A program made the translations under genes and the position numbers. From assembly GCF_000027125.1 (NCBI RefSeq), contig NC_017626.1: a DNA stretch of 64,000 nucleotides; one strand, written 5' to 3'. Each line of letters begins with the position of its first letter. Positions within the stretch are counted from its first letter, which is position 1. Source of the stretch: Escherichia coli 042. GTDB taxonomy: Bacteria > Pseudomonadota > Gammaproteobacteria > Enterobacterales > Enterobacteriaceae. The notes below the pieces were generated by a model, which had not been told where the DNA came from, did not search any database, and was given only the letters and a program-made list of their open reading frames with translations. Below are positions 3,747-30,248 of the stretch, piece by piece.

Positions 3747-3781
3747 CTTTTTAGTAAAACAAAGTCTACTAAAGACTATCA

Positions 3782-3813
3782 AGGCCGCACCTCACAAGGG
3801 TTGCGGCCTTTTT
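3782..3813 (+). terminator. Stem-loop plus T-run downstream of ssrA
   Basis: AGGCCGCA ... TGCGGCCT inverted repeat followed by TTTTC, 36 nt after tmRNA 3' end. Confidence 0.55.
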
Positions 3814-3912
3814 CATGTCTAGCAGAGTCTACTGAGAATTGCTAGAAGCTACGCATTATGGGACCCTTATATGGACCCACCGACTGGGTCCAATAATTTG
3901 AGGGTCCAATAC

Positions 3913-5142
3913 ATGGCAAGGCAGACTAAAAAACTCACAGACACTGAAATCAAAAACACCAAACCAGCAGACAAAGAGATCAATCTCTTCGATGGTGATG
4001 GGCTACTGCTACGAATCGCTCCTTCATCAAAAGGAGGGAAGAAGAACTGGTATCTCAGATATCCAGTGCCAGTAACCAAGAAGCGCACCAAGATGAGCTT
4101 GGGTACCTACCCTCACCTCTCATTAGCAAAGGCAAGAGCTTTGCGTGATGAATACCTGTCGTTACTTGCTAATGGTGTTGACCCTCAAGTCCACATCACT
4201 GAAAAAACTAATGCTCTGAAAGATGCCACGGAGCACACGCTACAAGCAGTTTCTCGAAAGTGGTTAGATGAGAAAATTAAGACTTCTGGCATCTCTCTAG
4301 ACCATGCAGAAGATATCTGGCGCAGCCTCGAAAAAAACATCTTTTCAACTCTGGGTGATGTTCCTATCAAAGAGATCCGCCCCAAAATGCTCAAGCAGCA
4401 TCTTGACCCAATTGAGCAGCGCGGTGTTCTCGAAACTCTACGTCGTATAATTTCCAGACTGAATGAAATCTTTCGCTATGCTGCCACGGAAGAGCTTATA
4501 GAGTTCAATCCTGCCGACAATCTCGCTCAGCGTTTCAGTAAACCTAAGAAGCAAAACATGCCTGCCCTTCCACCTGATGAGCTACCACGCTTCATGGTTG
4601 CTTTATCTAACGCATCTATACGGTTAGAAACCCGTATGCTGATCGAGTGGCAATTGTTGACGTGGGTAAGGCCCGGTGAAGCCGTTCGGGCAAGATGGTG
4701 TGATATTGATGAAGAGAGCAGATTTTGGAATATCCCTTCAGAATTCATGAAAATGAAACGCCCACATAAGGTTCCATTGAGTAAAGAAGCTCTCCGCATT
4801 TTAGAAAACATGCGCCCTATCAGTGGTCATAGAGAATGGGTTTTCCCCAGCATCAAAGCTCCCCTCAGTCATATGCATGAACAAACAGCTAATGCAGCCA
4901 TAATTCGTATGGGGTTTGGCGGAGAGCTTGTTGCTCATGGTATGAGATCTATTGCAAGGACAGCAGCCGAAGAATACGGTAAGTTTAGAACGGAGGTGCT
5001 TGAATCCGCTCTGGCTCATACTAAAAAAGATGAAATAATAGCCGCGTATAACCGTTCGGAATACCTAGTTGAAAGAGAAGAACTAATGAAATGGTGGGGG
5101 GATTATGTCAGCAGCAAAAAATATAAGATGATGGCAGCATAA
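3913..5142 (+). CDS. Tyrosine recombinase / integrase, P4 family
   Basis: MARQTKKLTDTEIKNTKPADKEINLFDGDGL... with C-terminal R..HGMRS..A....Y catalytic-region pattern; similar to but diverged from K-12 IntA; ATG at 3913 preferred over ORF-track start 3871. Confidence 0.88.
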   Translation: MARQTKKLTDTEIKNTKPADKEINLFDGDGLLLRIAPSSKGGKKNWYLRYPVPVTKKRTKMSLGTYPHLSLAKARALRDEYLSLLANGVDPQVHITEKTNALKDATEHTLQAVSRKWLDEKIKTSGISLDHAEDIWRSLEKNIFSTLGDVPIKEIRPKMLKQHLDPIEQRGVLETLRRIISRLNEIFRYAATEELIEFNPADNLAQRFSKPKKQNMPALPPDELPRFMVALSNASIRLETRMLIEWQLLTWVRPGEAVRARWCDIDEESRFWNIPSEFMKMKRPHKVPLSKEALRILENMRPISGHREWVFPSIKAPLSHMHEQTANAAIIRMGFGGELVAHGMRSIARTAAEEYGKFRTEVLESALAHTKKDEIIAAYNRSEYLVEREELMKWWGDYVSSKKYKMMAA

Positions 5143-5163
5143 ATAAATTTTAATCATATAATT

Positions 5164-28280: not shown

Positions 28281-28514
28281 TTATGCTACTTTATTACGTG
28301 ATAAAGTAATCTTTTCATCAATCCACTTATCTATATCACTCTCTAAGAATGCTATTGCTCTTTCACCAAGTTTTATTGGCGATGGGAATTCATTACGACT
28401 AATCAAACGATAAATCCACGCTTTACATAAACCAGTACGATTTAATACTTCTGGTAAACGAATAAGTCTTTTACTGTTTGATACTACATTAGTATTCATC
28501 TTTATCTCCTTCAC
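28281..28514 (-). CDS. alpA: AlpA-family phage regulatory protein (small HTH regulator/excisionase-like)
   Basis: 77 aa; KRLIRLPEVLNRTGLCKAWIYRLISRNEFPSPIKLGERAIAFLESDIDKWI fits the AlpA pattern. Confidence 0.8.
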   Translation of the reverse strand: MKEIKMNTNVVSNSKRLIRLPEVLNRTGLCKAWIYRLISRNEFPSPIKLGERAIAFLESDIDKWIDEKITLSRNKVA

Positions 28515-28654
28515 GTTGTTCTCGATAGAGATAATTATCGTATTTTTTCTAGGAGCTAACTAGGGGTGTTCAGGCGAGAGATTTTAACGCTAAAGTGAGT
28601 TTTGATGAGTTTCGGGGAAGTTCAACCGGAGTGAAGTTCCCCATTTTTTGCTTT

Positions 28655-29521
28655 TTACTTTTCTTGTTCTTCTTGCTCGTCTTCGGGTAAGTAGTAGTTG
28701 ATGAAACTCCACACTTTCCAATCCCTGTCAGAGTCGTATTTAACTATAAAATCGCCTAACGATTTGATGTAGCTCTGGTTGGTCATAAAACCTACAGCCA
28801 AAGGATAATCAGTATCTTTTACCATGCCTTCACTGCGGTTATTTTCACTAATCAGATGAGGGTAAAGCAACCTCGTCAGCAGCGCTATACCAATTTTGGT
28901 GTTGTTCTTTTTCTCCCAGAACATGAGATCAAACATCGGTATAAGATTATATTTCATAACTTTTTTGATCGTACCGACCCCAAAACGATAACCTCTTTCT
29001 TCATGGGGCCTCACCTTAAGCTCCTTCTTCCATCGCGGTATCATCGTTTTCAGATGCTCAATGATGTCTTCTGTAGAAGCCTCTGAGAGATGAATTTCAA
29101 CAAACATGACATCTTTACTGATGCCCGCTTGATTAAGGTATTGCGAAAGCTGCCTTGACCTCTTAGCCTCTTCTTGCGGGCCAATAAGTCTATTCACCAT
29201 ATCAACAGCCCCAATAACATCTTTCGCACCAGCAATAGTCAGTGGATTTGCTATGTAGCTTGATGAAAGGATTTCTTCTGGCTTGTCAATTTTAGCGTCC
29301 TCATTAAAGAGGACTTGCCCGGACTGTATCTTCTGCTCATGATCATCAACAAGAGCTTTAAGTTGGGGTTTAAGCGAATCGTATTGGGTGAGCAGATTGT
29401 AAGCAAGAACACGTCTTTCTACTTCTATGTATATCTGTTCAACCGTCAGCTCGTTCAGCACATTATACTTGTCAACGTCGAACCATTTAGTCACTACCTT
29501 TACTATTTCTGTTCTCGTCAT
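28655..29521 (-). CDS. Hypothetical protein (288 aa)
   Basis: ORF; start overlaps stop of upstream gene by 4 nt. Confidence 0.5.
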   Translation of the reverse strand: MTRTEIVKVVTKWFDVDKYNVLNELTVEQIYIEVERRVLAYNLLTQYDSLKPQLKALVDDHEQKIQSGQVLFNEDAKIDKPEEILSSSYIANPLTIAGAKDVIGAVDMVNRLIGPQEEAKRSRQLSQYLNQAGISKDVMFVEIHLSEASTEDIIEHLKTMIPRWKKELKVRPHEERGYRFGVGTIKKVMKYNLIPMFDLMFWEKKNNTKIGIALLTRLLYPHLISENNRSEGMVKDTDYPLAVGFMTNQSYIKSLGDFIVKYDSDRDWKVWSFINYYLPEDEQEEQEK

Positions 29522-29889
29522 TTTTTCCTCAACTCATTCACAGCAATTTGCGGAAGCGTCAATACTGACTTAAGACTTACTTCAATTCGACTGATGATTG
29601 CTTCTCGTGGGCCACTACGCCAACCCGCACTTGCGTAGAAATCATCAAGAATGCTTTTCATCTGTTCTTCACTTTCAAAAGCCCGTATGAGGTAGTAGCT
29701 GTCAGCATCGTGCAGAGAGTTTCCATACGCAACCACATCTATACCGTTCCGGGTATGAAGTGGAACACTGACTTCATACATGATCTGATGGAACTCCTCA
29801 CCAGAATCTTTTTTCAGGGTGTATTGTAGTATTTCGACGATCCTATCCTTCATACCTTCTCCATCAATGACCATGAGAAACTGTTTCAA
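29518..29889 (-). CDS. Hypothetical protein (123 aa)
   Basis: ORF translationally coupled to the 288-aa gene. Confidence 0.5.
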   Translation of the reverse strand: MKQFLMVIDGEGMKDRIVEILQYTLKKDSGEEFHQIMYEVSVPLHTRNGIDVVAYGNSLHDADSYYLIRAFESEEQMKSILDDFYASAGWRSGPREAIISRIEVSLKSVLTLPQIAVNELRKK

Positions 29890-30248
29890 TGACGCTAACG
29901 CATTCGGTAGGTTAAATGAAGAAAAGCTGACGCAGAGGATGTGAGTTCAACTTCGAGTAGGTAGCTGAACTGTTGAATGTGTTATCTTTCAGCATTGTTT
30001 GACGTCAAACGTTCAGCAGTTTCGCTAAATGGTTCCACAATTGAACCCTTAATTAAAAATTAAATCAAAATTCCAATATAAATCAATTTATTAAAGCACT
30101 AATTACAGGGACGCCAGCCAATCATGATTGGACGGTGCAAGGACAACACCAACAAAAACAGGAAGTTAGAAGTCTCAGCAAGACACCGACCAGACGGTGA
30201 GGAGACATAAAAGGATACGCAAAGGAGCCGCGGCTCCTGGTGATATGA

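Follow-up and report, generated by a model that had tools for sequence, protein, structure and literature searches.

An island at ssrA of Escherichia coli 042 that is probably an integrative mobilisable element with a ROD21/EARL-type backbone, a CP4-57-like integrase and TraY/TraW homologues

The insert that follows the transfer-messenger RNA (tmRNA) gene ssrA of Escherichia coli 042 was analysed within a 64,000-nucleotide stretch of contig NC_017626.1 (hereafter the window, to which all positions refer unless another sequence is named). We consider it probable that this 26-kb insert is an integrative mobilisable element (IME), in which a backbone of the ROD21/EARL type is combined with a CP4-57-like, ssrA-specific integrase. 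The island extends over window positions 3747-30120 (26,374 bp) and contains 29 intact coding sequences, all of which are also annotated in the closest genome, the RefSeq chromosome NZ_OZ547150.1, which matches at 99.9% over the island. Its GC content is 0.30-0.47 at about 5000-30000, compared with about 0.48-0.53 on both flanks. The initial annotation, made from the letters of the sequence, had already proposed an IME rather than a CP4-57-type prophage, and the identification of an integrase, an AlpA-type excisionase, a MobQ relaxase, a TraD protein and a block resembling an origin of transfer (oriT), together with the lack of phage structural genes, agrees with that proposal.

To define the ends of the island, an empty-site genome (L002) was aligned with both window junctions. 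In many E. coli genomes ssrA is directly followed by ypjA, which is the island-free arrangement. The attachment sites obtained were as follows (slash, junction; hyphens, missing nucleotides):

3384-3746, plus strand: ssrA, the tmRNA gene (ARAGORN; Rfam RF00023, 292.8 bits; empty-site alignment)
3733-3746: attL core at the tmRNA 3' end, the last 14 nt of ssrA, CGCCAGCTCCACCA
30112-30120, plus strand: attR core CGCCAGC-----CA, the ssrA 3' end minus 5 nt (aligned with the empty site of L002, the attR of K-12 CP4-57 and two other carriers)
attB, empty site of L002: ...CTCCCGCCAGCTCCACCA / ATCATGATTGG...
attL, window: ...CTCCCGCCAGCTCCACCA / CTTTTTAG...
attR, window: ...ACAGGGACGCCAGC-----CA / ATCATGATTGG...

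The flanking repeat is the 14-nt ssrA terminus, five nucleotides of which (TCCAC) are missing from the attR copy, and the chromosomal flank restarts at 30121. Two other, diverged carriers of this island have an identical attR. The degenerate ssrA match noticed earlier at 30103-30120 thus proved to be the true attR (30112-30120), while the right end, previously set at 30100, has to be moved to 30120. A search of the island with Rfam revealed no non-coding RNA besides tmRNA.

The genes at the two ends of the island fit the recombination system expected from these sites:

3913-5142, plus strand: tyrosine integrase of P4 type, IntA-like and thus ssrA-targeting (NF007246, 442 bits, cutoff 434; phrog_1)
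28281-28499, minus strand: AlpA-family excisionase, a recombination directionality factor (phrog_66 and phrog_2790, E ~5e-11)
28655-29521, minus strand: DUF6387 protein (RefSeq name) encoded by an 867-bp gene, kin of the ~850-bp excisionase-associated gene of EARL islands (PMC6035254)

The P4-family integrase had been recognised directly after the tmRNA gene before, and its match to the P4-type model corroborates this. With attL and attR, the integrase and the AlpA-type protein make up the site-specific recombinase, excisionase and att repeats that are expected of an IME. To establish the kinship of the element, the island proteins were compared by BLASTP with those of the tRNA-Asn EARL island of CX15 (L014), the serU island of uropathogenic E. 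coli F11 (L005) and CP4-57 of K-12. The amino acid identities were:

Integrase: 32% (EARL CX15), 31% (serU F11), 49% (CP4-57 IntA)
MobQ relaxase: 76% (EARL CX15), 59% (serU F11), no homologue in CP4-57
TraD: 56% (EARL CX15), 55% (serU F11), no homologue in CP4-57
H-NS: no hit in EARL CX15, 76% (serU F11, H-NS/Hfp), no homologue in CP4-57
H-NST: no hit in EARL CX15, 78% (serU F11), no homologue in CP4-57
AlpA-type excisionase: 51% (EARL CX15), 43% (serU F11), 31% (CP4-57 AlpA)
DUF6387 protein: 34% (EARL CX15), 41% (serU F11), no homologue in CP4-57
SEN1982-family lipoprotein: no hit in EARL CX15, 48% (serU F11), no homologue in CP4-57

Gene order also matched that of the CX15 island and of three serU islands (L005, L013 and L015): an RNA gene, the integrase, cargo, traD diverging from mobQ, lipoprotein genes, the H-NS gene and the RepL region are followed by the H-NST gene, small genes, the AlpA and DUF6387 genes and attR. 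On these comparisons, everything but the integrase is best assigned to the EARL/serU backbone, and the integrase to the CP4-57-type, ssrA-specific group.

EARL islands, such as ROD21 of Salmonella Enteritidis, IE3 of enteropathogenic E. coli E2348/69 and ICEKp258.2, resemble the island in their size of about 26 kb, low GC content, integrase beside an RNA gene, AlpA-type excisionase and DUF6387 gene (~843-850 bp in EARL) at the far end, MobA/MobL (MobQ) relaxase with a divergent TraD, full-length and truncated H-NS genes on opposite strands (a trait frequent but not universal in that family), SEN1982-type lipoprotein and restriction-modification-type cargo (PMC6035254). The island differs from them in residing at ssrA instead of tRNA-Asn and in its integrase, which is closer to IntA than to the EARL enzyme, although the latter comparison was made with CX15 and not with ROD21's own integrase. 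It differs further in that the type IV pilin/PilV pair is not among its 29 proteins; TraW and TraY homologues, unmentioned in the EARL paper, occupy the slot related to type IV secretion. EARL was defined by insertion at tRNA-Asn and by a ROD21-like attL-integrase segment, on which the family tree was also based; its authors regarded the islands as mobilisable, not conjugative, excision having been reported for ROD21, IE3 and ICEKp258.2, and ROD21 transfer requiring a co-resident conjugative plasmid (PMC6035254).

The serU islands (the TcpC/Hfp island of CFT073 and that of F11) share TraD, MobQ, the lipoprotein, RepL, H-NS (Hfp), H-NST, AlpA and DUF6387 with the ssrA island, and some members also possess TraY (87%) and TraW (80.5%). 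Their integrase, 31% identical, has another target, they hold PilV, a pilin and other cargo (TcpC, Drt5 and others), and their orientation is reversed: L005, L013 and L015 have the AlpA/DUF6387 genes next to the tRNA gene and the integrase at the opposite end, unlike the ssrA and tRNA-Asn islands, while the backbone genes keep their order. Islands of both the ROD21/EARL and the serU group are already regarded in the literature as mobilisable and not self-transmissible (PMC6035254). In the literature searched, islands of this type were found at tRNA-Asn and serU only, and neither a ROD21-like island inserted at ssrA nor TraY-carrying islands were encountered there. The element is best classified as an ssrA-targeting island of the known ROD21/EARL kind, not as a separate kind.

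The mobilisation region consists of two divergent genes and the DNA between them:

10352-11860, plus strand: intact MobQ-family relaxase (NF041496, 259.7 bits, cutoff 200, model positions 1-197 of 197)
9205-9516, minus strand: Ti-type TraD relaxosome accessory protein of 103 aa (Pfam PF06412, E 1.1e-12), diverging from mobQ
10151-10280, plus strand: candidate oriT block with a hairpin at 10157-10187 and an inverted repeat at 10257-10276, 70-200 bp upstream of mobQ

The relaxase, postulated earlier as a MOBQ enzyme, matched its model over the full length and above the cutoff; its reading frame is intact, and its translation shows Tyr25 and the HxDxxxxHxH motif. Its partner had been described as MobC-like. 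The relaxosome-type role holds, although the family is that of TraD (PF06412, E 1e-12), not MobC. The 420 bp upstream of mobQ were aligned from seven islands, including a metagenomic relative with a 37%-identical TraY. The 10151-10280 block, which contains the oriT-like inverted repeat (10157-10187) of the initial annotation, was near-invariant across the seven islands while the flanking DNA had diverged. Pairing in the hairpin is retained via different stem sequences in two lineages, the inner stem being ACACTGC/GCAGTGT in the window, CTCAC/GTGAG in MLI104K1 and CTCGC/GCGAG in the metagenomic relative (L006), and the region, treated as single-stranded DNA, folded better than 200 of 200 shuffled sequences (z = -3.07). 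This block is the best oriT candidate. The intact MobQ, TraD and the conserved candidate hairpin block supply the own relaxase and/or oriT by which an IME is recognised, and no VirB4-type or other ATPase family, no coupling protein and, besides the TraY and TraW homologues, no component of a type IV secretion machine was detected among the 29 proteins, in keeping with the incomplete mating-pair system of such elements. The largest open reading frames (ORFs) encode TraY, MobQ, the DUF3644 protein, the integrase and TraW, none of which is an ATPase.

A phage satellite or a cryptic prophage of the P4/CP4-57 type, which would travel by hijacking helper-phage particles, could likewise have a P4-family integrase, an AlpA-type regulator and the attachment site of CP4-57, and several island proteins indeed belong to PHROG families of unknown function. 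However, the PHROGs search of the 29 proteins found mainly integrase, excisionase, methylase and unknown-function families, plus a weak match of one protein (g21, see below) to phrog_345, and no capsid, terminase, portal, tail, primase-helicase, Sid/Psu/Delta-like or packaging family. The absence of phage structural genes, previously judged by eye, is thereby confirmed by homology search, and megablast against 50,697 phage records gave no match for the island. Instead, the island contains a relaxase, TraD, a candidate oriT block and parts of a type IV secretion system (T4SS). Likeness to CP4-57 is limited to the attachment site with its CGCCAGC crossover region, the integrase and the excisionase; no other gene is shared, and CP4-57 lacks a relaxase, oriT, T4SS parts, RepL and H-NS genes. 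That the island is a phage satellite or cryptic prophage is thus highly improbable.

Four island genes had escaped the first reading of the sequence, which missed the AlpA-type excisionase, the DUF6387 gene and two genes related to a T4SS, here listed with their neighbour:

19949-22609, minus strand: DotA/TraY-family inner-membrane protein (TIGR04346, 419.7 bits, cutoff 100, model positions 4-656 of 656; PDB DotA 9ngy, E 4.7e-42)
18325-19575, minus strand: distant TraW-family protein (RefSeq name 'TraW family'; hhalign)
22626-23150, minus strand: g19, 174 aa, directly upstream of traY, with an N-terminal signal-peptide-like segment and no family match

When the family profile of the TraW-like protein was compared with that of IncI-gamma and IncL TraW by hhalign, the two aligned end to end over 353 columns (probability 95.8%, E 7.2e-9). 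An AlphaFold2 model of this protein, built from a 20-sequence alignment, was poor (pLDDT 41). Copies of g19 that are 64-98% identical precede traY in L003 and L015. The assignment of g19 as TraX was considered and rejected, as the ORFs upstream of distant traY genes are not homologous to it. In IncI and IncL/M plasmids traW, traX, traY and excA lie side by side; transfer requires traW and traY, and the donor protein that the entry-exclusion protein ExcA recognises is TraY (PMC6112013, PMC4416936). DotA of Legionella forms a pentameric central 'protochannel' with IcmX (PMC12857230), and in one preprint the counterpart of IcmX is given as TraW, but the protein cited there is the TraW of the F plasmid. 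Nothing in the sequence speaks for the IncQ-compatible helper suggested earlier; the homologues of TraY and TraW are instead indicative of I-type (MPF_I) systems.

TraY relatives of 54-90% identity were found in Pectobacterium, Dickeya, Salmonella, Citrobacter and Brenneria. The metagenomic relative L006 has its 37%-identical TraY together with TraD, MobA and RepL and without a T4SS, and the TraY and TraW of serU islands stand beside PilV and a pilin. These occurrences bear on another explanation, namely that the island has arisen by decay of an integrative and conjugative element and is now immobile. TraY and TraW would then be leftovers of a lost I-type T4SS, and the island would be kept only since its removal would damage ssrA. 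The small number of T4SS components (two, with no VirB4, coupling protein or pilus genes), the degenerate attR and the presence of ~30%-identical TraY relatives in apparent conjugative gene clusters are in line with such decay. Against it, all 29 genes are intact, and the integrase, AlpA, MobQ, TraD and the oriT block have been retained by islands whose protein identity has dropped to 59-76%. TraD, MobQ, RepL and TraY are likewise combined in the absence of a T4SS in L006, where TraY identity is 37%, and in serU islands, which favours selection over recent decay. Moreover, 65 of the 5,426 genomes have this island type, and the cargo beside its integrase varies. Taken together, we regard the decayed remnant as unlikely, and TraY and TraW are best viewed as long-standing members of the backbone of a mobilisable island, not as a recent leftover. 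As a separate observation, a TraY of 58% identity is encoded on two metagenome contigs (L008 and L009, 7964-12670), where FtsH-like, ClpB/ClpK-like and helicase genes surround it and a relaxase gene is not adjacent; a gene for 397 aa lies upstream of it in the reverse orientation.

By analogy, TraY and TraW could be a pair of channel proteins like DotA and IcmX and take the place of the corresponding pair of an I-type helper, a reading that we offer tentatively. It can be extended, with similar reserve, to the islands at ssrA, serU and tRNA-Asn together, which may carry their own recipient-facing I-type parts and insert these into the T4SS of the helper, the ssrA island in addition locking ssrA. 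The parts would be TraY-TraW as the DotA-IcmX (VirB6/VirB5-like) central protochannel, to which sibling islands would add a thin-pilus pilin and the PilV adhesin. SGI1-type islands are mobilisable, possess their own excision and replication functions as well as distant homologues of a few helper T4SS subunits, and remodel the mating apparatus of IncC plasmids; in genes, target site (trmE) and helper family they are unrelated to the island described here. If the proposal were true, the ssrA island would represent an I-type counterpart of the SGI1 remodelling, and its transfer would profit from the rebuilt channel, which might also evade entry exclusion by ExcA, the protein that recognises TraY, or alter the recipient range.

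The island may also be mobilisable while TraY and TraW have no role in transfer, serving as an exclusion or surface module or in an unrelated envelope function beneficial to the host. This variant belongs within the IME explanation, so that its probability is not meant to sum to one with that of the latter. Three observations speak for it: both proteins are very distant from plasmid TraY and TraW, the small signal-peptide-like protein g19 is conserved alongside them, and the only mobilisation tested in the family relied on pSLT, the Salmonella virulence plasmid, which we take to be of the IncF and not of an I type. Nevertheless, DotA/TraY and IcmX/TraW are known solely as components of T4SS channels, and the PilV and pilin added by sibling islands are likewise parts of I-type conjugation. 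A function outside transfer is plausible, though less likely than not.

The damaged attR has a predictable consequence for the host. Recombination in the shared CGCCAGC core would leave an ssrA that ends in ...CGCCAGCCAATCATG and would be devoid of the G-U pair, two further acceptor-stem pairs and CCA. Since attR is without TCCAC, excision should leave a crippled tmRNA gene. The predicted attP junction of the circle is ...ACAGGGACGCCAGCTCCACCACTTTTTAG... and that of the emptied site is ...CTCCCGCCAGCCAATCATG.... When all complete E. coli genomes were searched, the predicted scar was found in WB61 (NZ_CP020025.1; L018, 2681-3080), where an empty ssrA-ypjA site has an ssrA ending in ...CGCCAGCCAATCATG and the tmRNA gene is annotated with 359 nt, versus 363 nt. 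WB61 looks like a strain that is probably tmRNA-defective and bears a natural excision scar. The attR of CP4-57 in K-12 has a 1-nt deletion at the same spot as the 5-nt deletion of the island, and excision of CP4-57 inactivates tmRNA through deletion of T357 (PMC10107115), so the two elements are alike in that their attR deletion, T357 in K-12 and TCCAC in the island, makes excision damaging to tmRNA. In CAVP773 (NZ_CM176349.1; L019, ~5990-6080), a P2-like prophage resides at ssrA and its attR, preceded by a ~45-nt duplication of ssrA, shows the same 5-nt deletion. As this attR is common to an unrelated P2-like prophage, the deletion is to be taken as a property of the chromosomal right flank. 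That prophage holds genes for CI, ogr/Delta, its own integrase and a dCTP-deaminase defence protein. The island would supply the only functional ssrA 3' end of its host, and its loss would disable trans-translation; a defective tmRNA gene remaining in the donor would therefore penalise loss of the island.

The presumed replication module lies between the genes for the full-length and the truncated H-NS and is listed here with all three copies of a palindrome:

23471-24235, minus strand: g20, a divergent RepL-like replication/maintenance protein (29% identical to the RepL annotated in the serU island of F11, E 3e-20)
25693-26391, plus strand: g21, a putative winged-helix DNA-binding protein (weak matches: Pfam HTH_36 and DnaD_N, E ~3e-3; phrog_345 'replication initiation O-like', E 1.7e-3)
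24400-24481: iteron array 1, four copies of 21 bp, each with CTGACTnnnnAGTCAG (TRF score 87-97; family D2)
25394-25477: iteron array 2, four copies of 22 bp, TTATAGnnTnCTATAAC (TRF score 59-105; family D1)
9632-9652: copy 1 of the 21-bp palindrome GTGATTGTT-N3-AACAATCAC, upstream of traD
24960-24980 and 25101-25121: copies 2 and 3 of the palindrome, in the g20-g21 non-coding stretch on the RepL side

Both arrays lie inside a 1.46-kb non-coding stretch between the divergent g20 and g21. Rep-like winged-helix genes with iterons had been noted here before; both arrays and the RepL homology of g20, which has no match in Pfam, bear this out, while for g21 only weak winged-helix matches were obtained. 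The possibility that g20 and g21 are paralogues was dismissed after their comparison, which showed no similarity. Like the iterons, the palindrome is non-random and conserved: it occurs at three sites in the window, against 0.01 expected, and also upstream of RepL in serU islands (L005 at 29886 and 30024, L013 at 28732 and 28871, L015 at 22856). It may act as a shared operator joining the mobilisation and replication modules.

Further genes of the island are H-NS and lipoprotein genes of the backbone and cargo:

17098-17505, plus strand: full-length, Hfp-like H-NS paralogue of 135 aa (NF008193, E 1e-53)
26423-26662, minus strand: truncated, H-NST-like H-NS of 79 aa with the oligomerisation domain only (the NCBIfam StpA and H-NS models match by their N-terminal halves only)
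14047-14601, minus strand: SEN1982-family lipoprotein (RefSeq name; 48% to the serU-island lipoprotein), a backbone gene shared with ROD21-type islands
5188-6501, plus strand: DUF3644 protein, cargo (RefSeq name; candidate defence family PDC-S19, PADLOC PDLC04952, E 2.5e-68)
6836-7801, minus strand: M.PvuII-like N4-cytosine DNA methyltransferase, cargo (PDB 1boo, E 9.8e-91, full length; PADLOC MTase_II, E 1.5e-102)
7870-8559, plus strand: ORF of 229 aa, divergent from the methylase gene, a possible restriction enzyme by position only

The H-NS paralogue noted before is accordingly represented by a full-length and a truncated copy. Of the restriction-modification pair that had been proposed, the methylase is substantiated as M.PvuII-like, and the pair is half supported because its 229-aa neighbour has no detectable family. 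The segment between the integrase gene and traD differs among carriers, with the DUF3644 and methylase genes here and GmrSD, ApeA, DUF3732 or ATPase genes elsewhere; it behaves as a cargo slot, largely for defence genes. Over 517 bp, a second lipoprotein gene (14616-15194, minus strand, 192 aa) is ~92% identical at the nucleotide level to a hypothetical gene that occurs in at least 30 large Klebsiella pneumoniae plasmids, which suggests exchange of a single gene between islands and plasmids. Outside the island, a segment of ~10.7 kb between attR and glaH (window 30272-41006), which holds the ypjA autotransporter gene, remnants of pinH, ypjB and ypjC, ileY and ygaQ, is kept in the window and absent from NZ_OZ547150.1; the right flank of the island is therefore itself polymorphic. 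In this flank ARAGORN called a tRNA-Met (CAT) at 37995-38070 (minus strand), and RefSeq has a tRNA-Ile at the equivalent position of the related genome L003; we take this gene to be ileY, whose CAU anticodon is presumably modified to read AUA.

From these components the following life cycle can be proposed. The integrase and AlpA would recombine attL and attR across the CGCCAGC core to form a circle, after which MobQ and TraD would nick the oriT block and a single strand would leave through the T4SS of a co-resident conjugative element. The RepL/iteron module may keep the circle alive for a while. In the recipient, the integrase would insert the circle into ssrA, to which the island would bring its TCCACCA end as the last 7 nt of the tmRNA gene, and H-NS and H-NST would tune the silencing of the AT-rich island DNA. 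The donor would be left with a defective tmRNA gene formed from an attR without TCCAC, by which loss of the island would be penalised.

Several points weigh against this scheme. Excision, nicking, transfer and replication of the island are all predicted from its sequence. An RSF1010- or Ti-type nick sequence was sought in 9517-10351 and none could be assigned with confidence, homology support for g21 as a replication candidate is weak, and the 229-aa ORF gave no match in NCBIfam, PHROGs, PADLOC, Pfam or PDB that would favour a restriction enzyme. The scar in WB61 attests the excision of some occupant and cannot be ascribed to this island family specifically, because the same deleted attR belongs to the unrelated P2-like prophage, too. 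The plasmid TraY proteins in PLSDB reach only 21-24% identity to the TraY of the island. The TraW-like protein has no direct match in tblastn against plasmid TraW or in Pfam, NCBIfam and PDB sequence or profile searches, the sole tblastn match among plasmids being a mis-assigned chromosome fragment. No helper plasmid can be named, since TraY is that distant and TraW is detectable by profile comparison only. Finally, ROD21, the only relative tested, was reported to depend on pSLT (PMC6035254) and not on an IncI plasmid.

The integrase type of the island was present in 65 of the 5,426 complete E. coli genomes (~1%), always as a single copy and always in the chromosome. Relatives bearing traY were found in 190 of these genomes (~3.5%), and a related relaxase locus in 816. 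Carriage on plasmids was considered and discarded: the one strong match, CP088875.1, is a chromosomal piece with mtfA, the yersiniabactin island and a serU island. This 393-kb PLSDB 'plasmid' (pF17EC0245-1, L020), whose serU-type island is complete, looks like a mis-assigned or mis-assembled chromosomal segment.

According to these results, the ROD21/EARL backbone is not bound to tRNA-Asn, as its mobilisation, replication and H-NS core has been combined with three integrases or more, among them those for tRNA-Asn, serU and ssrA; consequently, the family extends beyond the definition published for it, and it seems to reach new sites by exchanging its integrase. Two points deserve attention, namely the conservation of TraY and TraW on islands that are not conjugative and the dependence of tmRNA integrity on retaining the island. 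The damaged attR links the stability of the island to ribosome rescue, as excision should disable tmRNA in the way known for CP4-57. The intact TraY and TraW, in turn, suggest which plasmids may mobilise such islands and how, and the question of the helper matters because relatives of the island carry virulence genes (TcpC, TlpA) and defence genes.

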